The notes beneath the pieces were generated by a model. The model ran no database searches and was not told the origin of the DNA. It saw nothing but the letters and a program-made list of their open reading frames with translations. From a virus (lineage: Duplodnaviria > Caudoviricetes), in IMG/VR virus record IMGVR_UViG_3300024259_000033, positions 1 to 60,032 of that record: a stretch of 60,032 nucleotides of DNA. One strand, given 5' to 3'. Shown here in pieces: positions 1-57,825 of this stretch. Position numbers and translations under genes: made by a program. Numbering within the stretch: position 1 is the stretch's first letter; each line of letters begins with the position of its first letter.

Positions 1-1167
1 TAATATTTCAGTTATAACTGGCAAAGTATTTTTTTGAACTTCATCAGTTAATGTTTCTGAATTTCCCCAATCATCTGTTGCATATATATCATATATTAAA
101 CTATCTCCTTCTACAAAACTAGAAGAATCAAAATCATATGTATTTGTTGTTAATACTTCATCTATTACTAAACTATCTCTAGCATTTTTATATCCTTTCA
201 ATATATATGAAACTTCAGACGTACCAGTTGGAAAACTACCATCGTGAGTAGCTACAGGCCAATCTATAGTAATTTCATCTGCTGTACTTACAACTATACC
301 AGTTGGTGTTACAGTCCCTTGTAAAACAGGAACTTCATTAATAGTATGTGCTACAGAATATATATCTATATTAGAATCTCCACCTATTGCAGAATTAGCT
401 CTTACTTTATATTGTACTACATCCCCTTCAGAATAAGTGTTAGGTATAACTGCTGCATTTGTCTCGACAGTATCACGCAATGTATAAATACCATCATTTA
501 TTTTTTCATATATATAATATTCATCTACTGTATTAAGTTCTATAAAAGGTTCTGGGAATGATAAATTTATATCTTCAACACTATCATTAATAATTAAACC
601 ATTTTTATCTATTTCATTATCTACATCAACTGTTACAACGTCTGTTTCTTCAAATGTTGGTATTGTTATAGCATCTCTATAATATATATATAAAATTGGT
701 TCTTGACTAGGATTATTTGTGCCTTCTAATCGTGTATAATTAACATAGGCATAGCTAGATGTATATATAGCAAACCCTGTTAAATTACTATTATTTAAAA
801 TATCCGTTAATATGCCATTAGTTAAAGCATTATGTTGTCTATTACCACTATATGGTAAAGAAAAAGTACCATACAAATTTCCTAATGAAGGAGTAACACC
901 AGGAGCTGTTAATAAACCATATACATATAAATTCGTATTAGAACCTTGACCTGCGGCAGTTCTTGCACAAGCAAGACTTACACCAGTGATAATTTTATCA
1001 CTTAAACTAGAGCGAATATCTGCTAAATCAAACCACATACAACCAGTTTGTAATGAATCTACACCATCATAACTACCTTGTATTGGTTCTTCATTAAAAC
1101 CACTTCTCCAACTACTATTTCTATATACTCCTATACCAGTAGCATATTTATATGTCCATCCTGTCAT
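1..1167 (-). CDS. Tail-associated/receptor-binding structural protein with Ig/Fn3-like beta-rich segments (3' end runs off the window)
   Basis: Not in the ORF track because it is truncated. ATG at 1167 has a GGAGG RBS, and the frame stays open to position 1 (MTGWTYKYATGIGVYRNSSW...QYKVRANSAIGG...IYATDDWGNS). It directly follows the 1953-aa baseplate gene. Confidence 0.7.
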   Translation of the reverse strand, partial: MTGWTYKYATGIGVYRNSSWRSGFNEEPIQGSYDGVDSLQTGCMWFDLADIRSSLSDKIITGVSLACARTAAGQGSNTNLYVYGLLTAPGVTPSLGNLYGTFSLPYSGNRQHNALTNGILTDILNNSNLTGFAIYTSSYAYVNYTRLEGTNNPSQEPILYIYYRDAITIPTFEETDVVTVDVDNEIDKNGLIINDSVEDINLSFPEPFIELNTVDEYYIYEKINDGIYTLRDTVETNAAVIPNTYSEGDVVQYKVRANSAIGGDSNIDIYSVAHTINEVPVLQGTVTPTGIVVSTADEITIDWPVATHDGSFPTGTSEVSYILKGYKNARDSLVIDEVLTTNTYDFDSSSFVEGDSLIYDIYATDDWGNSETLTDEVQKNTLPVITEIL

Positions 1168-4100: not shown

Positions 4101-7037
4101 TGTCATAAGAGAAGCATTAATACCTTTAGGAGTAACGCCTGTATGCCATATACGATTACCTGTTTCGACATCTATACTATCTGATAAAAAGATACCTCCA
4201 CCAATAATCGAAACCATACCTGTGACACCATTCGCATAAGGATAAGTATTCTCAATTTGAAGACCATCATTATCCATTGACATATTAGAAGCAATACCTG
4301 TTCTAAAAGCTATATCATTTTCATCTAAACTAGCTTGTAAAATAGAAGTATCAATTTGATGCAATGGTGTAATGGCAGTAGCCGCTCTCTCATAAGATGA
4401 CCCTCTAGTTTTAATTGTCTCACCAGCGGCAACCATACGTTTAAATAAATCTTCAAACTTTGTTTTATAATTTTGTATCGTTATTTTTGTATCTTTAGGT
4501 GAATCTAAATTGCTTTGTATTGATGAAATTAAACCTTTAACTCCATTAAAATGCAATTCATTATCGTTTATTCTAACTATCTGCCCAACTGAAGGAGTGT
4601 AATGTTCTTTGTCTGTAAAGCTAGAAATATCATGCACATCTACTTTATAACTTACATTAGGTACTGAAGAATTTAACATTACATCTACAGCATCTAAGTA
4701 AAATTGTGTAACAGCACGATTAGTTTTATAAGTTACATCATATGTATTATCTACATAAGTAACATTATTATTAATTTTTAATGTGACATAAAAGCCACCA
4801 TCCACACGACTAATATTATAATCATTAAATTCACTAACTGTATCAGTATTCAAAACATCATTATGCTCTACAGTAATTGAGGAAGAAATGATATTGGTAT
4901 CACTAATTAAAATACGTTTTGTATTTAATGTATAAGCTGTAGTTGGAGCAATTGTTACCGCAGAATTAACATTTGTATCACCAATTTTAAATACATGGTC
5001 TGTTAATGTTAAATTCTTATCTAATAATACTACAATAGGGTAAGATTGTACTGCATGATATTTAATGCAAACTTTATAATGAGCATCAAATAAAAATGTT
5101 TTTACATGCTCTACCCCATCAATATCTGTCCAAGTATCAGTGATTATTAAATCTTCAGGATCGAATATATCATCTACAAACATACCATCGAGAGAGATAT
5201 AAGGATAATATACTTGTGTTAATTCAACACCACTATAGTAAAATGGTTCAAACTCTCCAAGCAAAACATTAGTATCTTCTAATGCGGCAATAGTGTCACT
5301 ATTATTTACTGGGCTCACACTATAATCACTACTCTGCCATGAACCTTCCTTTAGATAATAACCCATGTCATTATCAAAAGCAGTAATAAGTGTTTCTTTC
5401 TCTGAAATTAGAGTGTCGTACTCAGCATCATAATATTTGATTTTAGCATAGACTTCACCATCAACTGCGGCAGAATCTGTTGTATCGCCTAATATGATAT
5501 TAACTGTTTCTATTTGAGTTATTAAAGATTCTAATAAGTCAGTATAAGTTGTTAATTGATTATTATAATAAGAAAATAAGTCATATGTGTAAGTTAAATG
5601 TACATAATCATCTTCTGATACTCCAGCAACACCTATTTTTAATATATAACCATATTCATCTAATATTTTAAAACCAGTATTAATTGTGCCTTCTTCTATT
5701 GTAACAGTATCATTTATAGCGCCTTGTTTTATAGGTTCTACATATAAAGTACCATCTTCTGATTTAACCTGAACTAACTCTTTTGTTTGTGTTAAAATAT
5801 GAGTATCTAAAGATGCATCTATTGTTGCTACTTTATCATTTGAATCATTTATAACATCTTGTGCGGCAACCCTTCTATCTTGCAAACTAGCTAATTCAGT
5901 TTCTTTTTTTATTCTAGTATTATCTACGTCATAATAATTATTTAAGTTCGTAGCAATAGCTAAATTCTTAGTACGTAAAGCAGTCTCAAAAACAATTACA
6001 TTACTATATTTTTCATAAGATAACAATCCTGTTTCATATAAATAATCAAAATTCAAAATGAAGTTATCAGCATTTAAGTTTGCATCTGCATTTGCTATAG
6101 CAATATATCCATCATCTGCATATTGACTCTCTATAGGTTCAACATACATTTTTGTAATTAAGTTTTTTGATTCAATTGTTTTAGATAGACTTTTCAAATT
6201 AGAACGATAATTAATTTCTAATTCACTATCTGTTAAATTATCTATTTTATAAATAACCTCTCTTCCTGTTATAAAGAAAGGTTTATTCGTATTTTCATAT
6301 TTATAAATATATTGAGGAAATACTTGAAAAGCCTCAGCAATATCTTGTGTAATATTATATTTATTACTATTCGATATTTGTAAGAATCTTTCTTTCTGAA
6401 TTAGAGAAGACTGTCCTCCTGAAATATACTCATCGCCATCTAGAACCCAGCTGGTGTTATAGGTCTTCTCATAAATAACGTCGTCATCTCCATTGAGATT
6501 ACTTATATCGACACTATAAGACCATTTGTCACCAGTGGGAAATACACGGTCTAACCAAAAATTAATATTTGGAGTAATTGTAGATTCAGTTTCTTCTTCT
6601 TCTAATAATAATATATCTTCATTTAAAGTTAATTGTTTGCCAATTTTACTTAGTTCGTAAACAGCTAGACTTTCACACTCTACCTTCATAATTAATTGTA
6701 AATTCTTACGCTCTTCTGAAATTTTAGAAACGACGAATTCAAAGATTTCCTGTGTAGAGGTTGACTTGTCATAAATAACTTTAATTTTTTGTTCATTAAG
6801 TAGCTGACGTAATTCATCAGTTTTACTATACCATAGTGGGTTTTCAATAAAATCTTGTGTTGTATTATCATAATATTTTAATGGTATACTAAAAGCAAAT
6901 TTAATTTGACCATTTATATTATTTGTTAAAATTGGATTTGTAATTTGTCCTTTGAACTCTATTTCAGAATTTCCTAAAACATGAAGTAATATATCTTCAT
7001 GAGTCCAAAGTGATATTTCATATCTACGTTTCTCCAT
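1176..7037 (-). CDS. Baseplate hub/Tal-like protein fused to a central tail fibre/spike (1953 aa)
   Basis: Follows TMP and Dit. N-terminal hub-like region, a coiled coil, then Gly-rich beta repeats. About five copies of a '(I/L)RLWxG...apFxvxxdGxlxas' motif. Confidence 0.75.
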   Translation of the reverse strand: MEKRRYEISLWTHEDILLHVLGNSEIEFKGQITNPILTNNINGQIKFAFSIPLKYYDNTTQDFIENPLWYSKTDELRQLLNEQKIKVIYDKSTSTQEIFEFVVSKISEERKNLQLIMKVECESLAVYELSKIGKQLTLNEDILLLEEEETESTITPNINFWLDRVFPTGDKWSYSVDISNLNGDDDVIYEKTYNTSWVLDGDEYISGGQSSLIQKERFLQISNSNKYNITQDIAEAFQVFPQYIYKYENTNKPFFITGREVIYKIDNLTDSELEINYRSNLKSLSKTIESKNLITKMYVEPIESQYADDGYIAIANADANLNADNFILNFDYLYETGLLSYEKYSNVIVFETALRTKNLAIATNLNNYYDVDNTRIKKETELASLQDRRVAAQDVINDSNDKVATIDASLDTHILTQTKELVQVKSEDGTLYVEPIKQGAINDTVTIEEGTINTGFKILDEYGYILKIGVAGVSEDDYVHLTYTYDLFSYYNNQLTTYTDLLESLITQIETVNIILGDTTDSAAVDGEVYAKIKYYDAEYDTLISEKETLITAFDNDMGYYLKEGSWQSSDYSVSPVNNSDTIAALEDTNVLLGEFEPFYYSGVELTQVYYPYISLDGMFVDDIFDPEDLIITDTWTDIDGVEHVKTFLFDAHYKVCIKYHAVQSYPIVVLLDKNLTLTDHVFKIGDTNVNSAVTIAPTTAYTLNTKRILISDTNIISSSITVEHNDVLNTDTVSEFNDYNISRVDGGFYVTLKINNNVTYVDNTYDVTYKTNRAVTQFYLDAVDVMLNSSVPNVSYKVDVHDISSFTDKEHYTPSVGQIVRINDNELHFNGVKGLISSIQSNLDSPKDTKITIQNYKTKFEDLFKRMVAAGETIKTRGSSYERAATAITPLHQIDTSILQASLDENDIAFRTGIASNMSMDNDGLQIENTYPYANGVTGMVSIIGGGIFLSDSIDVETGNRIWHTGVTPKGINASLMTLGQLDVSKVNIYSGNQVRFTWNDEGLFAFAQTAGGDTDFTKWIKFNEEGLGFSRSVDVGGDPVYDLKLDWDGLTLGFQGDVVQLSSTDGLMIYKDDELRLQIGQFDVDAVTYYGMQLLDENGDITLRSTSDGNLLLSQTIQVGTDDNNAGLTGAGAEDESIRLWVGASYVGEEYDYTDSPFIVKQDGSLIASNAIITGSITATDGTFNGIIHANSGSIEEILTIGVNGYIGFYGGTIETDLEEEVVIWAGAPNENDVYDKTSAALQITGGGLLTANNVDITGNINVISGTLTELFIGEEYQAGLVYNDENTIVFWINGIEPVAPALFDPTTSKFYINKQGKIFSSSIELDENAWIYGNMYLGEQISGSYYNTGLIGQDSIFLDPITGANLRLWSGASDSNYNTADFRLYDDGMLYTNSLVLTGALEADSAALTGSLSVGDITIANAGGDTLGYIGSTNYISNVSGWRISADGSTEFSNATIRGELKAAVFEYEKINSIGGELYVSPAFIVQNNVLIINNELIIELANTNNSLWTTDAQVKIQAILQDTLSVITEEILDGIIINKNDTEGTITISLSTTEDYDSYYLLQNSMVVNAGQTGSCGIRLSAEDANGPFIDIFETQDTNSITRLGNLSGIVDSINGFGTLSGYGLYSDSVYLKGKLYLPNAGMTDDGDTDSDIRIWAGTNPDNKENAPFRITQGGDLYASSGTFSGSIHATEDSTFSGTLAIAGLIIDRDDDSGTGIDDNIPQKFYSAFQSDGEAADSNNPEVEGLSVKLSDLISVSDEDGFSLFHGGLRVFPNATSEIVGPDTVYTRDSFPYLSTVNSGKRMTVDNLHIMLYGDTLSQGMIITGESISFTKPTIKSASEDYLLFESSAYTQDVLSGINIANNGVYDYLRIHISNSGNNVIVFEDSEDTHSVKVGINIEEPTSALEVGGSITINKKEGSSLQVGLILGDVKVIEVGTKGADDYGIDIVI

Positions 7038-38015: not shown

Positions 38016-38273
38016 CCTTTCAACTTACTTGATACTTAATATAATATATTATAAGCAGTGACTAGCCTTTATAGTAAAAGTAGCCAAGCCACTTATAGCG
38101 TGTTTTAATACTACATACTACATACTATTGCAATATCAGCACCAACCATCAGTTATAACGCCCGACTATGCGACCTATTCGGAAGGCATCCGCCAACTAT
38201 TCTATAAGAAGTTAGCAACTTGTTAAGTATTGGTTTAGTAATGATCTAAACGATACCCCTCTAAGAATTCTAA

Positions 38274-38394
38274 GCCAAATTTAGGATTTGAACCTAAATC
38301 TCTAATCTAAAGAATTAGTAATTTGAATCTAAAGAATTAGTAATTTGAACCTAAATCTAAAGGATTAGTGTGTTTCCTATTACACCATTTTGAC
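38274..38394 (-). pseudogene. Degenerate tRNA with internal tandem duplications
   Basis: Minus strand GTCAAAA-TG-GTGTAATAGGAAACAC (D arm)...TTAGGTTCAAATCCTAA (T arm)-ATTTGGC. The anticodon arm is repeated through 22-bp duplications (38304-38347). Confidence 0.6.
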
Positions 38395-47352: not shown

Positions 47353-47427
47353 AGGCGAGTGGTGTAATCGGTAACACATGACACTTTGACTGTCACATAC
47401 ATAGTTCAAGTCTATGCTCGCCTACCA
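47353..47427 (+). tRNA. tRNA-Gln(TTG)
   Basis: AGGCGAG/CTCGCCT acceptor, TGACA-CTTTGAC-TGTCA anticodon arm, CCA. Confidence 0.9.
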
Positions 47428-47439
47428 AAAGAGGTTAAT

Positions 47440-47703
47440 ATGATTAAGAGAACAGCTAGGGAAACAATTGAGGTAATAGAAAATGGAGAGATAGTAAGTA
47501 AGACTACTAGGAATATAGAGGAAATTGATGATAGTGCATATCAATCGCTTTTCCCTTTTCATTATCGTGATGTATTAAATCCCTTTAAAGAGTTGGATTG
47601 GAATATACCTAAGCCAACTTGTAAGGAAGATGAAGTAGCTAAATATGGTAGTTCAACAGGTGATAAAGTACATATAAAGCCAGAGACTACGAGTAAATTG
47701 TAA
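47440..47703 (+). CDS. Hypothetical protein
   Basis: True start is ATG 47440 (GAGG RBS) after tRNA-Gln. Confidence 0.55.
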   Translation: MIKRTARETIEVIENGEIVSKTTRNIEEIDDSAYQSLFPFHYRDVLNPFKELDWNIPKPTCKEDEVAKYGSSTGDKVHIKPETTSKL

Positions 47704-47843
47704 AATATTTAGTAAAAAGGCGGTTTTAATTTGAGTATTAATATTATATAATTAATATATTATATAATCACTATTATTATGTACATATTTATCTACCATG
47801 TTGTAGAATAAGAATCCAAGGCTCGCAATGCGTTTCTCGGTTT

Positions 47844-47918
47844 GCCGAATTAGTTTAATAGGTAAAACAATAGTTTTGTACTCTATAAACGAGGGTTTGA
47901 ATCCTTCATTCGGCTCCA
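47844..47918 (+). tRNA. tRNA-Thr(TGT)
   Basis: GCCGAAT/ATTCGGC acceptor, TGT anticodon, TCCA end. Non-canonical T loop TTTGAAT. Confidence 0.8.
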
Positions 47919-47944
47919 ACTAAATTATAAAGAAAGGAAAAATA

Positions 47945-48337
47945 ATGAAAGAATATTTTGAAGGATATGTAAGTACAGAACCAGAGGATGTAAACGAACC
48001 AACTAATAAAGATATAAAAAGTAGTAGATTAAAGAATAGTTATACTTTAAGTGGTTCTTATAGTAATAATAGCAAGAGAAAAGACAATATAATTTTAACT
48101 ACAATAGCTATAGTTAGTATAATAATAGGATACCTATCATCTTATATTTTAACATGGGGAGTCTTAGTCGATTATTTTAATACTATTAATCCTATGTTTA
48201 ATATAGTTTTATTATTAATTTATATAGGTATGGGATTCATTATGTCATTAACCGCTTTAGTCATACTTGGTTATATTTGGGCATTTATTTGTTGGATAGG
48301 ACATATTATAAGGAAAAAGAAAAATATAGGAATGTAG
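47945..48337 (+). CDS. Membrane protein (two TM helices)
   Basis: Hydrophobic C-terminal half, AAGGA RBS. Confidence 0.65.
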   Translation: MKEYFEGYVSTEPEDVNEPTNKDIKSSRLKNSYTLSGSYSNNSKRKDNIILTTIAIVSIIIGYLSSYILTWGVLVDYFNTINPMFNIVLLLIYIGMGFIMSLTALVILGYIWAFICWIGHIIRKKKNIGM

Positions 48338-48657
48338 CTAAATGGTTAAGGCACTCTTCCACGAATATTCAAGCAGTAGTAGACAAACCTACCTGTATTA
48401 CATGTGGTGTTGAAATATCCTCACGTAACTTGAAGTACTGTATCAAATGTGCTGGTGCTATTAGAAGAAAAGCTGAAAGACCAAGCCCAATACAATTAAA
48501 AGAGTTGATTAGATTGCAACCGTTCACTACTATTGCGGCACAATTTGGTGTTAGTGATAATGCAATACGAAAATGGTGTAAACTATATAATTTACCATCA
48601 ACAAAAAGAGAAATAAATAGCTATTCAGATAATGAATGGAAAAATATAGGGACATAA
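48328..48657 (+). pseudogene. tRNA 5'-half remnant fused to a C-terminal Zn-finger/HTH fragment of a homing-endonuclease-like gene
   Basis: AGGAATGTAGCTAAATGGTTAAGGCA (acceptor plus D arm), then CITC..CIKC and FTTIAAQFGVSDNAIRKWC with no good start codon. Confidence 0.55.
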
Positions 48658-48721
48658 TGTAATGGGAACATGTCTCTCTGATAAGGAGGCTTTCCAAGTT
48701 CGAATCTTGGTATCCCTACCA
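48648..48721 (+). tRNA. tRNA-Ile(GAT)
   Basis: AGGGACA/TATCCCT acceptor, CTGATAA loop, GTTCGAATC, CCA. Confidence 0.8.
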
Positions 48722-48772
48722 AGTGATATGGTGTTAATAAAATGAAATAATTATAAATTATGGAGGTTTATT

Positions 48773-49111
48773 ATGGCTTATGAAAATGGCAAACAAGTAA
48801 ATAGATATGCTAACAAAATAGAACATAAACGCAGACAATGGGAGAAGTGCTTTAGCCCGCAATGTTCTTTCTTTCCAGTTAAATTTATGTCTTTGTTCCC
48901 AGAAGATTACTGGTTAGATGAAAATAAACAAGTAGAATATTGGAGAGCATATGATTATTCTACTAACAGAGTATTCGCAAAAAAGCAAACAAATAAAAGA
49001 TTGCGACAAGATAATAGGAAATTAAATGATACTCTTTATTATGAAAATTTCCCAAATTATCAACATGGACAATTTCATAAACAATTTGATTATTGGTGGG
49101 CTGTTTATTAA
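48773..49111 (+). CDS. Hypothetical protein
   Basis: GGAGG RBS, 112 aa. Confidence 0.65.
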   Translation: MAYENGKQVNRYANKIEHKRRQWEKCFSPQCSFFPVKFMSLFPEDYWLDENKQVEYWRAYDYSTNRVFAKKQTNKRLRQDNRKLNDTLYYENFPNYQHGQFHKQFDYWWAVY

Positions 49112-49124
49112 ACAGCCTATATAT

Positions 49125-49201
49125 GCATCATTGACTTAGTTGGTTAAAGCAAGACACTTTTAATGTCGAGATCCAAGGTTCGAATCCTTAATGATGCACC
49201 A
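49125..49201 (+). tRNA. tRNA-Lys(TTT)
   Basis: GCATCAT/ATGATGC acceptor, CTTTTAA loop, CCA. Confidence 0.85.
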
Positions 49202-49324
49202 GCACCAGACTGATCAACTGGCTCTAATATTATTCGGGATATTAGATGGGACAAAACGTACATATTCGTCGTTTCTCTAAGTTTTGGTATTTATACCGAC
49301 TTTATTTTTCAGAATATGTAATTT

Positions 49325-49400
49325 GGGAAGTTCGTATATTTGGTATGTACATTCGGTTGAAGCCCGAGCGGTTGAGGTTCGACTCCTTGACTTCCCACCA
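49325..49400 (+). tRNA. tRNA-Phe(GAA)
   Basis: GGGAAGT/ACTTCCC acceptor, TTGAAGC loop, CCA. Confidence 0.85.
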
Positions 49401-49405
49401 TTTAT

Positions 49406-49479
49406 GCTCTGTTAGTTCAAAGGTAGAACACTCGGCTTACATCCGAGAGATAATAGTTCGAATCTATTACGGAGTACCA
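49406..49479 (+). tRNA. tRNA-Val(TAC)
   Basis: GCTCTGT/ACGGAGT acceptor, CTCGG-CTTACAT-CCGAG, CCA. Confidence 0.9.
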
Positions 49480-49589
49480 GACGGTTTCACTTATCGTGAA
49501 CAAAGTGCGTGAAAGATAAATATAGTTGCAACTATATAGATCCAATGGGTGGTAGCAAGCAGTAACACGTAAAACAAACTATCACGCGT

Positions 49590-49665
49590 ACCAGTATAGT
49601 AGTAAATGGGAAAACGACGGTCTCCAAAACCGATATTCTAGGTTCGAGTCCTAGTACTGGTGCCA
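49590..49665 (+). tRNA. tRNA-Trp(CCA)
   Basis: ACCAGTA/TACTGGT acceptor, CTCCAAA loop, GCCA end. Confidence 0.85.
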
Positions 49666-49675
49666 AGTGTATTTA

Positions 49676-49704
49676 TTGACTTTTTCTTAAAAAAATGATA
49701 TAAT
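49676..49704 (+). promoter_or_regulatory. Sigma-A-type promoter
   Basis: TTGACT-N17-TATAAT. Confidence 0.75.
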
Positions 49705-49789
49705 TATATTATATAAGTGATAAAAATTATAAAAAGGAGTAACCAAGAAGGAAAAAAGATATTATAAAATATACAGAGAAAGAATATAT

Positions 49790-49865
49790 GCGTCTATAGC
49801 TCAGCGTATAGAGCACTTGACTACGAATCAAGAGGGCATAGGTTAGAATCCTATTAGACGCCCCA
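49790..49865 (+). tRNA. tRNA-Arg(ACG)
   Basis: GCGTCTA/TAGACGC acceptor, CTTGA-CTACGAA-TCAAG, CCA. Confidence 0.88.
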
Positions 49866-49887
49866 ATATTCCTCTTAGGACTACCAT

Positions 49888-49963
49888 AGATCTATAGCTT
49901 AACGGATAGAGCAACATTCTTCTAAAGTGTCAGATGAAGGTTCGAATCCTTCTAGGTCTACCA
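49888..49963 (+). tRNA. tRNA-Arg(TCT)
   Basis: AGATCTA/TAGGTCT acceptor, CTTCTAA loop, CCA. Confidence 0.88.
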
Positions 49964-50002
49964 AAATTATAATTATAAATTAATATAAGAGGAGGCATAA
50001 TC

Positions 50003-50146
50003 ATGGGAATAAAAATATTTTTAACATTACTAATATGTGTAATTAGTGCATTATTAGGAATAGATGTACATGTTAAAAATTACAAAGGGGTAGCTATTGA
50101 AGGAACTTTAGTATTTTTAATTTCAATAGCAATAGTATTATCATAA
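50003..50146 (+). CDS. 47-aa two-TM membrane peptide
   Basis: GAGGAGG RBS, hydrophobic. Confidence 0.55.
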   Translation: MGIKIFLTLLICVISALLGIDVHVKNYKGVAIEGTLVFLISIAIVLS

Positions 50147-50167
50147 ATAAATAAATCGATTTACATT

Positions 50168-50253
50168 GCGAGGGTGATGGAACTGGAGATACATGCAGCA
50201 CTTAAAATGCTGTGCTTAGATGATTGAGGGTTCGACTCCCTCCCTTCGCACCA
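50168..50253 (+). tRNA. tRNA-Leu(TAA)
   Basis: CAGCA-CTTAAAA-TGCTG arm, long variable region, CCA. Confidence 0.9.
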
Positions 50254-50274
50254 TTAAAATATAAGAGGTGAATT

Positions 50275-50520
50275 ATGAAAATTTTTAAACGTATTAGAAA
50301 TTCTTATCAAAAATATTGTTGTAGTTGTAATTATTTTGTTAAAACTTATAAATACAAAGAAGAAAAAGAATATAATATTCGTGGTAATATATATAAAGCA
50401 CCATATATTAAACGTATATGTAAAGATTGTATGAATGAAGTATCTTATGGTAGAGATAAAGATAAAAATATAAAAAGTTTAGAAAAAGCAATGAGATATG
50501 GTGCTGTAACTAAGCGGTAA
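50275..50520 (+). CDS. Small Cys-containing hypothetical protein
   Basis: GAGGTG RBS. The stop codon lies inside tRNA-Cys. Confidence 0.55.
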   Translation: MKIFKRIRNSYQKYCCSCNYFVKTYKYKEEKEYNIRGNIYKAPYIKRICKDCMNEVSYGRDKDKNIKSLEKAMRYGAVTKR

Positions 50521-50574
50521 GGTAATAGATTGCAAATCTATTTTTCCTCAGTTTAAATCTGAGCAGTACCTCCA
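50500..50574 (+). tRNA. tRNA-Cys(GCA)
   Basis: GGTGCTG/CAGTACC acceptor, ATAGA-TTGCAAA-TCTAT, U73-CCA. Confidence 0.85.
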
Positions 50575-50589
50575 AAGAAAGGTGAATAA

Positions 50590-50763
50590 ATGGAAATATA
50601 TATAAACAAAAAAATTAATCGTGTATATGTTCTTGTAGAAGAAATTAATATTATTGAAAGTAGATTTTTATGTATTAATGATGGTTATACATATACCATA
50701 CCTATCAATGAGTTAATGTTTGTAGTTAATGATAAACAAATAGGTTTTTATAAAAGAAGTTAA
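50590..50763 (+). CDS. Hypothetical protein (57 aa)
   Basis: AAGGTG RBS, open frame between tRNAs. Confidence 0.5.
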   Translation: MEIYINKKINRVYVLVEEINIIESRFLCINDGYTYTIPINELMFVVNDKQIGFYKRS

Positions 50764-50773
50764 TACACTATAA

Positions 50774-50859
50774 GCAAGAGTGACGGAACTGGAAATACAT
50801 GCTGGTCTTAGAAACCAGTGCTTAGATGATTGAGGGTTCGACTCCCTCCTCTTGTACCA
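50774..50859 (+). tRNA. tRNA-Leu(TAG)
   Basis: CTGGT-CTTAGAA-ACCAG arm. Variable and T-arm region identical to tRNA-Leu(TAA). CCA. Confidence 0.9.
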
Positions 50860-52090: not shown

Positions 52091-52414
52091 ATGAGGACGT
52101 CTAAAATTAGAGGTCATAAAATATTTTACGATGGTACAGAATGGCGGTTTTGTGATACAAGAAAAGCTACATCACAAGCCGCCTTTTTGTCACGTCCATG
52201 CAATTATTGTAAAAAATATTCTACCAAAGAAGGGTATGATGGATGTTTAGGAACATTAATTGGTATAATGAATGTATGCTGTGGTCATAGAAGAAAAAAA
52301 GAAAGTTATGTTCAATTTTTAGATGGTCATTCAATACATGGTAAAGACGCATATAAAATTTTAAAAATACTTAAAAGAATAAATGGAGGACAAAATGAAA
52401 AAGAAAATACGTAA
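52091..52414 (+). CDS. Cys-rich hypothetical protein
   Basis: RPC..C...GYDGCLGTL..NVCCGH motif. Confidence 0.65.
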   Translation: MRTSKIRGHKIFYDGTEWRFCDTRKATSQAAFLSRPCNYCKKYSTKEGYDGCLGTLIGIMNVCCGHRRKKESYVQFLDGHSIHGKDAYKILKILKRINGGQNEKENT

Positions 52415-53519
52415 ATTGCTATTTGCTTTAATACTATTTTTATGTGTTAATGTATTTGTTGGAGCAGGCTTGCCTGCGACAGCAGAAAGGCAATTAGGAA
52501 ATGAAAAAGAATACATATTTTATGTAATTGGCGATGGGATGGGAGAGGCTCATCTACAATTAGGTAATATTTATAGCAAAGTTGCATATGGAAGTTCGGC
52601 AGTATGGGAATATCCTAGTTATCGTAGTATGTTAATAGGTGGTGCAGAAAGTTCACAGGGTGGTTCTATGTTAGCAACAGGCGAAAAAAATGGTGCAGGA
52701 TTAATTTCTGAACGCAAGGATGGAACAGAATTGATTACTATTTTAGATGTGGCAAAAGAAAATGGATATGCTACTGGTATTGTTACTAATGCAAGTTTAG
52801 CTGATGCTACCCCTGCTGCATTTTATGCACATGCAGACTATAGAAATAAAATGGATACTATATCGAAATGTATCCCTACATCAGAAGTTGACTACTTCAT
52901 TGGAGGTGGAAAGAATTTTCTAGATCGTAACAATATTGAGGGAGAAAACATAGTTAGTGTAATAGATTATGATTTACCTTTCCTTTATTTGAGACATCAT
53001 GAAAAATTTAAGCATTTATATGAGGATTTACCTTCTTTATTAAATATGACTTTAGATGCAATAGATTATTTAAATGATGATAATGATAAGATGTTTATAG
53101 TAATTGAGTCTTCTGCAATTGATGGTGCGGGACATCAGGAAAATGATGTGTATGCTGCGGCAGAAATGAATAGAATGAACTCACTAATTAGAATGTTATC
53201 TTCTTTTGATAATGCTAATATAATATTGACTGCTGATCATGAAACAGGTAATCATTCTATGTTAGATAAGCCTATTGCAATTAATCCTAAAAAAGAACCT
53301 ATCAATTTAATTTCAGCATCTAGAATGACTGCTAAGATTGCATATAATGCGGGATTAAGACCCCATTCTTCAAAACATTCGAGACAAAAAGTCCCATTAG
53401 TCTTATTCTTAGATGACGGCAAGGATGTACATCATTTTACCGATTGCAAATCTATTGTTGATATACCACATGCTATTTGTGATATGATGGGATGGGAAGA
53501 TACTCTAGATAATGATTAA
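52395..53519 (+). CDS. Secreted alkaline phosphatase family protein
   Basis: Signal peptide. VIGDGMG, DATPAAFYAH, IDGAGH, TADHETG metal-binding motifs. Confidence 0.9.
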   Translation: MKKKIRKLLFALILFLCVNVFVGAGLPATAERQLGNEKEYIFYVIGDGMGEAHLQLGNIYSKVAYGSSAVWEYPSYRSMLIGGAESSQGGSMLATGEKNGAGLISERKDGTELITILDVAKENGYATGIVTNASLADATPAAFYAHADYRNKMDTISKCIPTSEVDYFIGGGKNFLDRNNIEGENIVSVIDYDLPFLYLRHHEKFKHLYEDLPSLLNMTLDAIDYLNDDNDKMFIVIESSAIDGAGHQENDVYAAAEMNRMNSLIRMLSSFDNANIILTADHETGNHSMLDKPIAINPKKEPINLISASRMTAKIAYNAGLRPHSSKHSRQKVPLVLFLDDGKDVHHFTDCKSIVDIPHAICDMMGWEDTLDND

Positions 53520-53568
53520 TAAGGAACTTATAAAATACTAACTAATATAAAAGTCAAGCTATAAAAGC

Positions 53569-53597
53569 TTGACTTTTCCAGTTTTTTATGATATAAT
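53569..53597 (+). promoter_or_regulatory. Promoter whose -35 lies in an inverted repeat
   Basis: TTGACT-N17-TATAAT, within AAAAGTCAAGCT-ATAAA-AGCTTGACTTTT. Confidence 0.75.
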
Positions 53598-53626
53598 AGT
53601 ATTATAAGATAAAGGAAGGCAAAAAT

Positions 53627-54280
53627 ATGAAAAAAACATTATATCCAAAAACAGAAAGATACAATCCTAAAAAGCTAATACAGATTACTGAAAAAATTAA
53701 TGGTGAATGTATTGGTTTTGCTAAGGATTTAGATGGTAATTTTATGATTATACAAAGGAATAATTTTTTTACGTTATTTTGTAATGATCACAATGAAATA
53801 GATTTTTCTAATGAGTTAAGTGTTATTTCTATTTTATATAAACAACTTCATGACTGGTTATTAGAAAATGGAGAAATGTTATTTAATGAACTACATTCAG
53901 GTTCAGTAATTTTTGGAGAGTGGGTTCATTCAAATTCAGGTACCTATACTCAAGGTCATTATGGAGATAGTTTATTTAAAATGTTTGCTAAAGCAAATAT
54001 AGACGAATATTATATTATAGGTCGTTATAAATATGACCATGACTTATTTAAATATCCATTCATGAATGTAGAAATACCTTCTTATATTGATGTAGTTCCA
54101 TTTATTAATAAAATGCCTATGTGTGCTTTAAGTTTAGAATTTTTAAATCGTTTGTATGAGCGTTATACACGAACATATGGAATTCATGTAGAAGGATTCG
54201 TAATTGAGATTGATGGGATGATAAAAAAGTATGTTCGTAAAAAAGAAAATAAAACTATCGAACATTTTTGGAAAGATTAA
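53627..54280 (+). CDS. ATP-dependent RNA ligase (Rnl2-like nucleotidyltransferase)
   Basis: YPKT, motif I TEKINGE, IFGEW (III), FAKA (IIIa), EGFVI (IV), KKYVR (V). Confidence 0.85.
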   Translation: MKKTLYPKTERYNPKKLIQITEKINGECIGFAKDLDGNFMIIQRNNFFTLFCNDHNEIDFSNELSVISILYKQLHDWLLENGEMLFNELHSGSVIFGEWVHSNSGTYTQGHYGDSLFKMFAKANIDEYYIIGRYKYDHDLFKYPFMNVEIPSYIDVVPFINKMPMCALSLEFLNRLYERYTRTYGIHVEGFVIEIDGMIKKYVRKKENKTIEHFWKD

Positions 54281-54305
54281 ATTTGAAAATACTATAACAA
54301 AATTA

Positions 54306-54334
54306 TTGACTTTTTGTGAAAAAAATGATATAAT
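54306..54334 (+). promoter_or_regulatory. Promoter of the large ncRNA operon
   Basis: TTGACT-N17-TATAAT with extended TG, followed by ~1.4 kb without a credible ORF. Confidence 0.85.
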
Positions 54335-54358
54335 AAGTTATAAAGAGAATTAAAAAAT

Positions 54359-55246
54359 AAATAGATTTGGCAGTTTGGTGTCAACGAAGATAAATATGGT
54401 AACATATGAAAAGATAGTGTGATAAACTATCGCTATGAAAATAGTCTATCCAAACAATTGAGGACAGAGAGCTTCCCCTAATGGGTGCTTGTTTCATTAA
54501 GTGATTTGTGGAACTATAGCCTGTGAAGTTTTCCCAAAATGCGATGGTGTCTTATAATGTGCTAATTGTTATAAGATTATGCTACGTCAGAAACAACGGA
54601 CAGTCTGCGTTTCGTGCTATTATAACGATAGCTAGGGAATTGGTAAAACGAACAGTATCTAGAACTCAAAGACTATAAGTTTGAACTTAATCAGTAAAAG
54701 CGATAGTCAATATTACAAACGGTTTTTGGTTTAGCCTAGAATCTAGTAATATATCATGAGTAAACATGATTGTTGAAAATGTATAGCGGTGTGTTGCATT
54801 TATTATTCGCAAGATAATAAACAACTGTACTGGCACATCGTGTATCAGACCAGATTTGCGTAGGTTCGATCCCTACCTTCCCCACCATTTGGGGAAGTAG
54901 CTCAGTGGTAGAGCATTAGTATTAGAACTAAGTTAGAGAAAAGGTTATAAGCAAAAGACCAGTACATGGTTAGACGAAAGCAACTTAATGCCGTACTTAC
55001 AGAGGAATACGGCTCAATGGATACTGCAAGTTGAAATTGATTAATGGCATTTCTGCACGGTGGGTTCATTACCCTTTACATGCTGACGGTAGGAAATACA
55101 TTGAGTAGTTTAATTAATAAGAGGAGTGCCACTCTTTAAAAAAGGCAGTTGTAAGCAATACCGTTTTGGAACGGTGGATAAATAGAGAATAAATAATTCT
55201 ATAAAAGATGCTTAATGGTAGTTATAATCTCAGACTTTACCTATTT
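54359..55246 (+). ncRNA. Giant structured RNA, GOLLD-like (~890 nt), with embedded circularly permuted tRNA domain
   Basis: ORF-free. 5' AAATAG..AGTTTG pairs with 3' CAGACT..CTATTT. Many hairpins, and size and phage tRNA-array context match GOLLD. The family call is from recalled motif resemblance and is unverified. Confidence 0.6.
54860..54915 (+). ncRNA. Circularly permuted tRNA-like domain
   Basis: T arm GTAGG-TTCGATC-CCTAC, acceptor 3' strand CTTCCCC-A-CCA, TTT linker, acceptor 5' strand GGGGAAG, D arm GCTC-AGTGGTA-GAGC. Confidence 0.85.
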
Positions 55247-55251
55247 CTGTA

Positions 55252-55745
55252 AACAAGTAAATTGCGAAAGCATTTATGAGTTAAAGGAGTTTATGTAAGT
55301 AAACTCCATGATGTCGATGTAGTATGCCTCCACGTGGCGACATTGGGTAATTCTAAATACTATAGGTGAATTAATGACTGAATAATCCTTTTCACGGGAT
55401 AAGGTATGGTAAATATCGGGGTGAAGTTCCCTAATTTGAAATTCGATAGAAATATAAGATGTTAGCCAGTTTCAATATGATTGACCGTCATTAGATAGAC
55501 TAAACGATAGAGAAGCTATGCGGTGTTAAAACTGAATTTAGTTTCTTGCGGCTAGAGTATATCTCGAATGTGGTTTAGGTTGTAATATAATATGAAAGTC
55601 CGCTAATTTTGCAAGTAGTGAATGTATTACTTGGGTAAAACTGAATAACCCTGCTTCTAGTAAGTATCCTATTAATGAATGACGAGCCTATAAAGTTGAT
55701 TGAGAATGAAATTTACCAAATTAATATATACTATTGTATATATCA
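55252..55745 (+). ncRNA. Second large structured RNA (~500 nt), possibly ROOL-like
   Basis: ORF-free. Stems GGAGTTTA/TAAACTCC, ATGTCG/CGACAT, TAATGAC/GTCATTA, long-range TGGTAAAT/ATTTACCA. Ends at a terminator. Confidence 0.5.
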
Positions 55746-55778
55746 GAAATAGTGTATTTGCAAAAGTACACTATTTTT
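55746..55778 (+). terminator. Intrinsic terminator closing the ncRNA operon
   Basis: AAATAGTGTATTT-GCAA-AAGTACACTATTTTT. Confidence 0.8.
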
Positions 55779-55795
55779 ATTTTAAGGAGGAACTT

Positions 55796-56149
55796 ATGAA
55801 ACATATAGTACCATATGGAGTATCTGAATGGGACATTTTATTTGATAATGATATAAGTGTAGAATTAAAACATGTTAAATATGAAACTACAAGTATATTT
55901 GGTGGAGCAGATGGAGAAAGACGTATACAAGTTGATATTATCCATGCATCATTACCTGTTGATTTAATATTGACATTGTTAAATAATAAGGTAAAACAAA
56001 TTAGACAAAAGGTTGTCATACAATCTCTAGAGACAAGTGAGCAATCTACAATGGAAAATTTATTCGATGTTAATACATTTGAAATTGAAATAATTGCTGC
56101 AACACTTAGCCCAGCTGATATTCGTATAAATATTAATAAGATGATATAA
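55796..56149 (+). CDS. Hypothetical protein
   Basis: True start is ATG 55796 after AAGGAGG. Confidence 0.65.
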   Translation: MKHIVPYGVSEWDILFDNDISVELKHVKYETTSIFGGADGERRIQVDIIHASLPVDLILTLLNNKVKQIRQKVVIQSLETSEQSTMENLFDVNTFEIEIIAATLSPADIRININKMI

Positions 56150-56153
56150 AGAT

Positions 56154-56182
56154 TTGACTTTTTCAATAATTTATGATATAAT
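56154..56182 (+). promoter_or_regulatory. Promoter of second tRNA block
   Basis: TTGACT-N17-TATAAT. Confidence 0.75.
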
Positions 56183-56269
56183 TAATTATAAATTAAAATA
56201 TAAATATTTAATTTAAAAGTTATAGTAAATAATCTAGCTTTTTACAAAATAATAGAACATTTAAAACGA

Positions 56270-56341
56270 TGCGGGTTAGTGTAACGGCAGCATATAAGAC
56301 TCATTATCTTAAGGTGGGGTTCAACTCCTCGCCCGCACCCA
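56270..56341 (+). tRNA. tRNA-Met(CAT), slightly degenerate
   Basis: TGCGGGT/GCCCGCA acceptor, TAAGA-CTCATTA-TCTTA, short T stem. Confidence 0.7.
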
Positions 56342-56344
56342 TAT

Positions 56345-56420
56345 GACGCATTAGAACAATTGGTTAGTTCACCACCCTTTCAAGGTGACAACATGGGTTC
56401 GAACCCCGTATGCGTTACCA
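56345..56420 (+). tRNA. tRNA-Glu(TTC)
   Basis: GACGCAT/ATGCGTT acceptor, CTTTCAA loop, CCA. Confidence 0.88.
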
Positions 56421-56562
56421 AAAAACGGAAGTACTTGTCGAGGACTTCGGAGTGATAACTAGGACAAGGAAAGAGTGAAACATTGATAAGTTGTTTGATC
56501 AGTTATCTATACAACAGTGTAAGATGTGGACGTGGGAAGTTGGGTGTTGTCTTCCCTTTTAA

Positions 56563-56634
56563 GGTTCTATCGTATAGCGGTTAATACAACGGACTGTCGA
56601 TCCGTAAACGAGAGTTCAATTCTCTCTAGAATCG
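56563..56634 (+). tRNA. tRNA-Asp(GTC), no encoded CCA
   Basis: GGTTCTA/TAGAATC acceptor, ACGGA-CTGTCGA-TCCGT, G73. Confidence 0.88.
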
Positions 56635-56678
56635 GACTTATAATTATTTAAAGGTTTCATAAAAAGAGGCATTTAGCT

Positions 56679-57320
56679 ATGTCATACATTTATCAGATTA
56701 CCAATATAGTAAATGGCAAGCAATATATTGGTAAAACAGAAGGAACAATTGAAGAACGATGGAAACAACATTGCAAATCTTATAAACGGATAAATTGCGA
56801 AAAACGTCCATTATATTCAGCTATGAAAAAATATGGGTTAGATAGTTTTGTTATTATAAAACTAGAAGAATGTTTGCCACAAGATAGCAATGAAAAAGAA
56901 AAATATTGGATTGAAATATTAGGAACTTTTAAAAAAGGTTATAATGCAACTATTGGTGGAGATGGTGCTTTATTTATAGACTATGATTTAGTAGTAGAGA
57001 ACTATAAACATTTAAAAAATCAAACCAGTGTTGCAGAACTAATGAATATTACAACCGATAGCGTTAGAAAAATATTAAAAATTAAACATATATCTATATT
57101 AACAAGCAAAGAGGTTAATATTAATAGAGCAAATACGATTAATATGTTTGATAAAAACAATAAATTCATACGTAGTTTTGCTTCAGCAAAAGATGTAGGT
57201 AGATTTTTAATTATTAATAATAATTATACACAAGCAAATCTTACTTCAATATCTACAAATGTTGGTAGAGTTTGTAAGGGAAAAAGAAAAACCTGTATGG
57301 GTTTTATATGGGGAATATAG
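56679..57320 (+). mobile_element. Free-standing GIY-YIG homing endonuclease with NUMOD1-like C-terminal DNA-binding domain
   Basis: YIYQITNIVNGKQYIGKT..RWKQH, EKYWI, GYNATIGG, C-terminal FASAKDVGR..IS.NVGRVCKGKRKT.GFIW. Inserted between tRNA-Asp and tRNA-Met. Confidence 0.88.
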
Positions 57321-57394
57321 CAGTATGGTATAATTGGCTAACACATTCGGTTCATACCCGTAAGTTATAGGTTCAAACCCTTTTACTGCTACCA
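57319..57394 (+). tRNA. tRNA-Met/Ile2(CAT)
   Basis: AGCAGTA/TACTGCT acceptor, TTCATAC loop, CCA. Overlaps the endonuclease stop codon. Confidence 0.8.
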
Positions 57395-57396
57395 AA

Positions 57397-57825
57397 GCGT
57401 TATTTATAGTTTTCTCGCTTTAAAAGGCAAAGCTATCCCATGATAATTTGACGAAGAGTTTGGTAAAGAAATTATTATCGCAGAAGTATATTAGTGCGAT
57501 TCATAAGAATCTAATGCTTGCGTGAAGAACTATTGTCATTTTTAGTCACGTTGACACAAAATGAATGTGTGTATATACAGAGAAAATATACTTACCTTAT
57601 TGTTTATATCTAGTTGGCACAATAATGGTGTACCCCATATAATCCAACATTAAAATTTAACTTCTTTTATGGTGATAACCTAGTTGTGTAGTAGGGAGTT
57701 AGGTGTAGATATTAATTAATGCTACTTATAAAATATATCTTGATTGTAAGCCCATCAAGTATAAAGCGACAATGGCTAGGGATTTAGGAAGTCGCATACT
57801 AATGTATATCCAGAAACCTAATTTA
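57397..57825 (+). ncRNA. Candidate structured ncRNA (~430 nt), unassigned
   Basis: ORF-free spacer between two tRNAs with many stems and long-range pairs. Confidence 0.5.

Follow-up and report, generated by a model that had tools for sequence, protein, structure and literature searches.

A marine phage GOLLD RNA with a circularly permuted tRNA-like module in its variable linker

We examined a large non-coding RNA encoded in a 60,032-nucleotide (nt) stretch of viral DNA (Duplodnaviria; Caudoviricetes), IMG/VR virus record IMGVR_UViG_3300024259_000033, positions 1 to 60,032, which we refer to in its entirety as the window. Two transfer RNA (tRNA) arrays (47353-50859 and 56269-57394; 16 tRNA genes by ARAGORN) flank a stretch at 54281-55699 that holds no open reading frame (ORF) of 60 amino acids (aa) or more on either strand, the longest being 55 aa on the minus strand and 51 aa on the plus strand. 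This stretch encodes a GOLLD RNA of about 896 nt (about 0.9 kb, approximately 54341-55236) with its own promoter, and what is new about this family member is that it carries a circularly permuted tRNA-like module at the place where relatives carry ordinary tRNAs. We put the probability that this is a genuine GOLLD carrying a folded, permuted tRNA-like insert at roughly 0.8; the function that we propose for the insert is a hypothesis. GOLLD RNAs are among the largest non-coding RNAs of bacteria and phages, and their function has been a question since 2009. Cage structures determined in 2025 raised the idea that tRNAs nested in the linker are cargo or are stored for later release, and a permuted nested tRNA bears on this storage idea, since excision could not yield it as a single decoding tRNA.

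The GOLLD RNA and its transcription unit

The preliminary description of this locus, made from the sequence without database searches, had tentatively called 54359-55246 a GOLLD-like RNA, noting that such RNAs, of about 800 nt, are phage-associated and lie near tRNA genes, and had proposed a search with the Rfam GOLLD model as a check. We ran this search with cmscan against Rfam 15, and found that GOLLD (RF02032) matched the plus strand over the full length of the model (positions 1-416 of 416), scoring 167.9 bits where the gathering score is 150; the E value in the search of the whole window was 2.2e-45, and 6.6 of the 167.9 bits were bias. This supports the tentative call. The Rfam model spans only the conserved 3' half of the family. 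Its alignment to the window keeps the helices of the 3' domain with few non-canonical pairs flagged, and includes the GOLLD pseudoknot, in which 9 of 10 positions pair when read from the sequence. All four stems named in the preliminary description were found in the sequence, and the last two of them are helices of the Rfam model (Table 1).

The region upstream of the model match has the properties of the family's variable 5' domain. Its folding energy lies below that of its shuffles (z-score -2.23), as does that of the full RNA (54341-55250, z -2.26; 0 of 20 shuffles as good), and an nhmmer search matched it (E 0.0013) to the 5' domain of L016, a further GOLLD locus, with equal spacing to the 3' motif. 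Pairwise comparison with L016 showed that a GAUAGU/CUAUC hairpin is conserved and that a GNRA-capped hairpin is retained with a compensatory exchange of a G-C for a C-G pair. A structural report on the GOLLD RNA env-38 describes a 5' region of 420 nt and a 3' region of 413 nt, the first hairpin of the latter being followed by a linker that is disordered (PMC12286853). The window RNA resembles known GOLLD RNAs such as env-38 in its full 3'-domain match, in the size of its variable 5' domain (about 420-445 nt), in the position of its linker after the first 3'-domain hairpin, and in being phage-encoded, marine and situated between tRNA arrays, a context that also fits the family call. The full 3'-domain match, together with the size and homology of the 5' domain, thus supports both the family assignment and an RNA of approximately 54341-55236.

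A fallback offered earlier was that the locus encodes a new class of large RNA that merely resembles GOLLD. Neither the 5' domain nor 55237-55790 has an Rfam family and blastn gives no close relative, as such a class would have it; however, the full-length RF02032 match above the curated cut-off refutes this alternative, and the 5' domain partly aligns with that of L016 and belongs to a part of the RNA that is variable in the family according to the structural report (PMC12286853). We consider a new class extremely improbable.

The preliminary description had further proposed that the RNA has paired ends, with a terminal helix joining 54359-54377 to 55231-55246. Part of this stood, in that AAATAG (54359-54364) is complementary to CTATTT (55241-55246), but the rest of the two arms is non-complementary, which leaves six A/U-rich pairs, of which five are kept in the full-length minimum free energy (MFE) structure. 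At the corresponding positions of L016, the only relative with an alignable 5' domain, the sequences are non-complementary, and the proposed 3' arm overlaps the conserved last hairpin of the GOLLD model (55221-55236). The 5' and 3' regions of the solved structure are presented as separate domains, with a terminal helix going unmentioned in the accessible text (PMC12286853). We regard the terminal helix as unsupported.

Two other claims, a strong dedicated promoter and the lack of any ORF of 60 aa or more, were borne out, and the extent first given for the RNA is within about 10 to 20 nt of ours at each end (start about 54341, model end 55236). The promoter is a match to consensus only, from which we predicted the start near 54341. 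Three promoters built alike (TTGACT and a TG-extended TATAAT with 17 nt between them, 11/12 consensus matches) occur on the plus strand at 53569-53597, 54306-54334 and 56154-56182, preceding the RNA-ligase gene, GOLLD and the second tRNA array, respectively, and this likeness suggests one temporal class read by the host primary sigma factor. At the other end of the unit, an A/U-rich hairpin followed by a U-rich run is, judging by its sequence, likely the intrinsic terminator; it was absent from a consensus terminator scan because it has fewer than three G-C pairs, and directly 3' of it come the next gene's ribosome-binding site and ATG (55796). The ORF-free unit from promoter to terminator extends to about 55785 and includes a second RNA.

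Table 1. Coordinates of the features at the GOLLD locus and of the RNA-library contigs mapped to it.
Feature	Position	Strand	Detail
Alkaline-phosphatase-superfamily gene	52383-53519	+	PF00245, E 1.3e-24; upstream of RNA-ligase gene
RNA-ligase gene	53627-54280	+	217 aa, PF09414, E 2.4e-8; directly 5' of ORF-free stretch
Sigma-70-type promoter	54306-54334	+	TTGACT-17 nt-TATAAT, TG extension, 11/12 consensus matches
GOLLD variable 5' domain	54341-54785	+	ORF-free; about 445 nt; follows the promoter and ends before model position 1
Stem 1	54413-54418 / 54426-54431	+	GATAGT / ACTATC; sequence
Stem 2	54550-54558 / 54568-54576	+	TCTTATAAT / GTTATAAGA; sequence
GOLLD conserved 3' domain	54786-55236	+	RF02032 match
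First hairpin of 3' domain	54786-54845	+	model 1-62; directly 5' of linker
GOLLD variable linker	54846-54947	+	about 102 nt; model 63 to about 120 plus insertion
Permuted tRNA-like cloverleaf	54859-54931	+	MFE; ARAGORN on rejoined halves
C48	54859	+	module start
T arm	54860-54876	+	GUAGG-UUCGAUC-CCUAC; permuted module
Acceptor 3' strand	54877-54883	+	CUUCCCC; permuted module
ACCA, then UUU	54884-54887, 54888-54890	+	7-nt loop ACCAUUU closes acceptor end
Acceptor 5' strand	54891-54897	+	GGGGAAG; permuted module
U8 A9	54898-54899	+	permuted module
D arm	54900-54914	+	GCUC-AGUGGUA-GAGC; then A26 (54915)
Anticodon-like arm	54916-54931	+	5-pair stem, 6-nt loop AUUAGA (54921-54926)
GOLLD pseudoknot, 5' arm	54965-54974	+	pairs with 55108-55117; Rfam bracket columns
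Stem 3	54989-54994 / 55007-55012	+	GCCGTA / TACGGC; sequence; GOLLD model helix
GOLLD pseudoknot, 3' arm	55108-55117	+	Rfam alignment
Stem 4	55160-55166 / 55169-55175	+	ACCGTTT / GAACGGT; sequence; GOLLD model helix
Last conserved hairpin	55221-55236	+	loop UAUAAUCUCAG; 3' end of GOLLD model
X3 RNA contigs	54373-54884; 54882-55234		first crosses 5'/3' domain boundary; leftmost start 54373
X5 RNA contigs	54528-54883; 54911-55221		
X4 RNA contigs	54574-54872; 54921-55228		
Second RNA, without family	55328-55687	+	about 360 nt; RNA-library contigs
Candidate intrinsic terminator	55745-55785	+	A/U-rich 15-pair hairpin (MFE), then UUAUUUU

A permuted tRNA-like module in the linker

The linker, which ends at the conserved AAGCAAAAG (54948-54956), contains the parts of a tRNA in a changed order: T arm, acceptor 3' strand, ACCA, UUU, acceptor 5' strand, D arm and anticodon-like arm. 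RNAfold predicted the same four hairpins in the MFE structure of the linker alone and in that of the 910-nt RNA, and the linker-alone fold is more stable than expected (z -2.46; 2 of 200 shuffles as good). The acceptor strands form seven of seven Watson-Crick pairs, the 21 stem pairs contain no mismatch, and the tertiary nucleotides are all present (U8, A14, G15, G18, G19, A21, C48, G53, U54, U55, C56, A58 and C61). The permutation break sits in the variable loop, and it is there that the module is attached to the GOLLD body.

When the halves were rejoined in silico, ARAGORN called a tRNA in all 64 junction variants, compared to none in the native order and none of 500 shuffles. The native module was missed both by ARAGORN and by the Rfam tRNA model; ARAGORN likewise called none of 12 real tRNAs of the window once these had been permuted artificially. 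The anticodon-like arm has a 6-nt loop, AUUAGA, in place of a 7-nt loop with a readable anticodon, and ARAGORN reported "tRNA-???", with a two-base "anticodon" in every rejoined variant because of the 6-nt loop. A DNA contig from a second sample (X2, covering 54830-55068) is identical to the window, indicating that the permuted arrangement is not an assembly artefact.

Two Rfam families gave weak matches at the module, both well below their cut-offs; the models of both run from T arm to acceptor and on to the following element, in line with a true permutation. YrlA (RF02553) reached 28.1 bits against 69 (E 0.0016 in a 1.6-kb search), matched over model positions 30-81 only, and the window sequence has no Ro-binding stem. 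YrlA, a bacterial and phage Y RNA, is a tRNA mimic and not a decoding tRNA. In YrlA too, a T arm, an acceptor-like hairpin and a D arm follow one another as part of a longer non-coding RNA, and it is these three elements that the partial match takes in, but the window module keeps an anticodon-like arm and ACCA, and leaves the tRNA-like fold through the variable loop, not through the anticodon stem. The second match, to permuted transfer-messenger RNA (tmRNA_permuted), scored 22.3 bits against a cut-off of 47. Permuted tRNA genes, as in Cyanidioschyzon merolae, and the genes of two-piece tmRNA mature into functional tRNA or tmRNA via defined processing. Like them, the module places a CCA-bearing 3' half first, then a short spacer and the 5' half, and its acceptor strands are complementary; unlike them, its halves are embedded in a 0.9-kb scaffold, its anticodon loop has 6 nt and there is no tag reading frame. 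As for an ancestor, no tRNA of the window is close to the module, and the canonical tRNAs that share its acceptor and D arm were called Leu, Val and Lys (three matches in genome contigs, none in viral contigs).

We then compared the module with at least 119 other GOLLD-type loci from viral contigs, fetched by a 3'-motif pattern. Among the 111 listed loci with at least 500 nt upstream, the window included, four have a T arm in the linker zone: the window, L038, L041 and L076. The latter three carry ordinary nested tRNAs by both ARAGORN and Rfam (Ile in L038, Asn in L041, a 4-base anticodon in L076; nested between model 62 and about 128), inserted at the same point as the window's module and with the T arm at nearly the same distance from the 3' motif (-313, -318 and -301 nt, respectively, versus -314 nt in the window). 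Their D arm and acceptor are also similar in sequence to those of the module. These tRNAs, however, run in the normal 5'-to-3' order, whereas the window's module has its 3' half first, is closed by ACCAUUU and is missed by tRNA finders. Strict and relaxed searches for the T arm, acceptor hairpin and D arm in permuted order returned only the window among 120 listed loci (window included); the other matches of the relaxed search were A/U-rich and without a D arm, as read from the output.

Nested tRNAs are known from other members of the family: according to two reports, tRNAs sometimes occur in the GOLLD linker, which lies inside the cage (PMC12286853; PMC12990946), and one of these cites a Mycolicibacterium tRNA-Phe in J13/15 and an idea of "inhibited storage" (PMC12990946). 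Our literature search, which covered full texts, found no description of a permuted tRNA in GOLLD; in the GOLLD-relevant passages that it returned, "permuted" refers to group II introns.

Sequence searches returned no close relative of the window RNA. Beyond the 3' motifs, it is too distant from the other GOLLDs for blastn (119 loci listed): blastn and nhmmer against these loci recovered conserved 3' motifs only, in addition to the weak 5'-domain match in L016. The region 54280-55700 had no blastn match in 50,697 phage records, and locus searches with single proteins (the RNA ligase and the phosphatase-like protein) found no close relatives. A pattern for the permuted junction itself had 0 matches in viral contigs. 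Candidates from a pattern combining the D arm with a GOLLD anchor were rejected in both collections, with two matches in viral contigs, both unrelated tRNAs, and two in metagenome contigs, one a GC-rich GOLLD with a canonical nested tRNA-Gln and the other unrelated.

The GC-rich metagenomic GOLLD-like RNA of L206 (1250-1700, plus strand) is flanked by tRNA-Pro and tRNA-Met, and its nested tRNA-Gln, which has no encoded CCA, abuts the AAGCACAAG anchor. The nested tRNA of L076 (about 4390-4463, minus strand; 47.8 bits with the Rfam tRNA model) has an 8-nt loop with a 4-base anticodon by ARAGORN, and with one of the three canonical cases departing in this way, nested GOLLD tRNAs may not all be decoding tRNAs. 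L007 (about 848-919 and 1025-1058, plus strand) has the GOLLD 3' motif and no GOLLD match at the gathering score; ARAGORN called a tRNA-Met between -176 and -105 relative to the motif, where its 3' domain is expected, and this locus may be a disrupted or variant GOLLD.

The module could be a scar of two tandem copies of a nested tRNA in an ancestral GOLLD, of which the first lost its 5' half and the second its 3' half by deletion; the remnant would then be non-functional and would still fold only because it is recent. Canonical nested tRNAs at the equivalent site in other GOLLDs would supply the starting point, the 3-nt spacer after the encoded CCA resembles a tandem tRNA junction, and the seven Watson-Crick acceptor pairs are expected if both halves descend from one tRNA, and not otherwise. 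The 6-nt anticodon loop and the lack of a second permuted example in the listed GOLLD loci or the pattern scans are also in keeping with such an origin. However, such an origin requires that the two deletions both stopped precisely within the variable-loop position, the four arms, C48 and every tertiary nucleotide are intact, with 0 mismatches in 21 stem pairs, and a second sample carries the identical sequence. We think a scar unlikely, though worth keeping in view.

Contigs from marine RNA libraries

The stretch 54300-55800 is present in 20 listed sequencing runs, 13 of them RNA libraries, from 17 studies that all sampled seawater or other marine material; 8 of the 20 contain at least half of the sampled words, and one DNA run may be the source sample. 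We mapped contigs on 53000-57400 from the DNA run X2 and from the RNA runs X3, X4 and X5, which belong to three studies. From these libraries come first hints that the RNA is expressed and that a break occurs at the acceptor end of the module.

RNA contigs of the three runs span 54373-55234, and their 3' ends (55234, 55228 and 55221) fit the end of the GOLLD model at 55236. None of the RNA runs examined contained a joint between the RNA ends such as a circular GOLLD would give. No contig of the three RNA runs fell on 53000-54322 or on most of 55940-57100, and there was little cover at 55235-55327; the DNA run covers parts of the flanks that are bare in the RNA runs. Transcription of the non-coding unit and not of its flanks would agree with this pattern of cover, which is, however, not evidence for it. 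The depths of the three RNA pieces in X5 (51, 12 and 54) are unable to rank the parts, and we did not use them.

In two of the studies, contigs break off at the end of the acceptor 3' strand (54883 in X5, 54884 in X3), a point that the DNA contig passes. The letters that follow the end of the X3 contig are presumably Illumina adapter and would mean that inserts end at that point. None of the listed RNA contigs spans 54884-54911 with 31 nt to either side, whereas the DNA contig does. Together these observations hint weakly that a discrete RNA species ends with the acceptor 3' strand of the tRNA-like module.

Such an end would arise if the primary transcript were cleaved next to the tRNA-like acceptor, whether by RNase P on the 5' side of G54891, by 3' trimming or an RNase Z-type activity near A54884, or by both, in which case mature GOLLD would be a two-piece RNA joined by a split tRNA-like domain with a free acceptor 3' end. 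Beyond the contig stops, with adapter letters in one of the two studies, and the gap that DNA alone bridges, this would accord with the weak tmRNA_permuted match (22.3 bits). What bacterial RNase P recognizes is a full acceptor/T-arm minihelix that bears ACCA and has U at -1, and cutting of this kind processes the products of permuted two-piece tmRNA genes; we count both in its favor. On the other hand, the X3 contig 54882-55234 contains an uncut ACCAUUUGGGG, so that uncut molecules exist and any cleavage is incomplete; the right-hand contigs begin at 54882, 54911 and 54921, not at 54891; the closed 7-nt loop may be too tight for RNase P; and, in data consisting of contigs only, tRNA-like structure or modification can also break the coverage of complementary DNA. 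Processing at the acceptor end is therefore a tentative proposal, and we would sooner expect an uncut loop.

A cut in the acceptor loop would also allow this GOLLD to be read as a tRNA with a giant variable arm, the two GOLLD domains being joined only by the split tRNA-like domain. Free CCA ends, 14 per cage, would then face the lumen within reach of CCA-adding enzyme, aminoacyl-tRNA synthetases or host nucleases that target tRNA, and the cages would display or sequester tRNA-shaped baits (for example, decoys for anticodon or acceptor nucleases) and would not be stores of releasable tRNA. We judge this improbable, and more so than the cut itself.

Downstream of GOLLD, contigs of the same three runs point to a separate RNA species of about 360 nt within GOLLD's promoter-to-terminator unit. 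The contigs cover 55328-55688 in X3, 55328-55687 in X5 (followed by adapter letters) and 55365-55687 in X4, the end at 55687/55688 being common to three studies and the start at 55328 to two. In being followed by this unclassified RNA, and not directly by a tRNA, the window's GOLLD differs from known GOLLD RNA such as env-38. This second RNA contains no ORF of 30 aa or more and had no Rfam match at E ≤10 apart from noise (manA, Plasmid_RNAIII and mir-728); its fold is not unusual (z +0.99), and no similar sequence was found downstream of the 119 other GOLLDs listed. A hepatitis delta virus (HDV)-like ribozyme (RF02682) at 55310-55377 was rejected, with 19.9 bits against 44, a U in the column of the catalytic C (J4/2), no P2 partner by eye, and RNA contigs starting at 55328 and not at the predicted cleavage site, 55310.

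Possible roles of the module and the surrounding genome

The most likely reading of the module is a tethered tRNA mimic. The cryo-electron microscopy study of env-38 GOLLD describes a D7 14-mer nanocage (PMC12286853). By homology, the window RNA would be expected to self-assemble into a closed homo-oligomeric cage in which 5' domains form the caps and 3' domains the rings, with the variable linker pointing into the lumen. That linker is 42 nt and disordered in env-38, in contrast to about 102 nt with a predicted tRNA-like fold here. The tRNA-like L-shape would hang by its variable loop from the GOLLD body with its acceptor end closed by ACCAUUU, and might serve as an L-shaped handle for a tRNA-binding partner, one per subunit, inside the cage. 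Cutting of the acceptor end by RNase P or 3'-processing enzymes would turn the module into a tRNA-like domain of two pieces with a nick between them. Judging by its anatomy, with the halves swapped and a loop of 6 nt, release of the module as an ordinary decoding tRNA is not possible. Either role, as a mimic or as a nicked two-piece domain, is our hypothesis for the case that the module is under selection. If it is functional, the tethered L-shape or the acceptor end would matter, not tRNA supply; if it is a scar, the locus would be one more GOLLD, yet with hints of expression in marine RNA libraries and an unclassified companion RNA.

Several observations weigh against the tethered mimic. The cage is extrapolated from env-38, a relative without an alignment to the window sequence. 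A nested tRNA recently duplicated in tandem would likewise leave the acceptor strands perfectly complementary, and decay would account equally well for the 6-nt anticodon loop. The module is a single instance: no permuted relative occurs among the 119 other GOLLD loci listed, the permuted junction was not found by two patterns in viral contigs or by one pattern in metagenome contigs, and the permuted arrangement was not found beside 80 homologues of the neighboring RNA ligase. The RNA data are assembled contigs and carry no reading of strand, true ends or levels, and the uncut X3 contig limits any nicked form to a part of the molecules.

The genome that hosts this GOLLD RNA is that of a large, low-GC (31%) marine tailed phage. 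The window has an estimated completeness of about 40% and a GC content of 30.9%, and its large terminase shares 47% identity with that of Geobacillus virus E3; next in line are other Bacillota phages of about 120-160 kb. The three isolated phages nearest by terminase (Geobacillus E3, Alicyclobacillus KKP_3916 and Enterococcus H1) gave no GOLLD match (0 of 3), and this is little informative since control genomes were also negative.

Upstream of the RNA, the phosphatase-like and RNA-ligase genes form a possible RNA-repair pair that recalls the RNA-repair pairs of phages; we did not rely on it. Should the GOLLD cages present tRNA-shaped baits with free CCA ends, these adjacent genes might share with them a theme of RNA repair or counter-defence. 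A GOLLD motif was found near RNA-ligase homologues (about 40% identity) in 0 of 80 viral loci. Inside the second tRNA array, between tRNA-Asp and tRNA-Met, lies a GIY-YIG endonuclease gene (56679-57320, plus strand; PF01541, E 2e-11), likely a homing endonuclease. Distant from both arrays, the Rfam tRNA model matched the minus strand at 38273-38394 with 33.7 bits, its positions 1-71 spread across 122 nt, and this may be a tRNA gene with an insertion or intron of about 50 nt.

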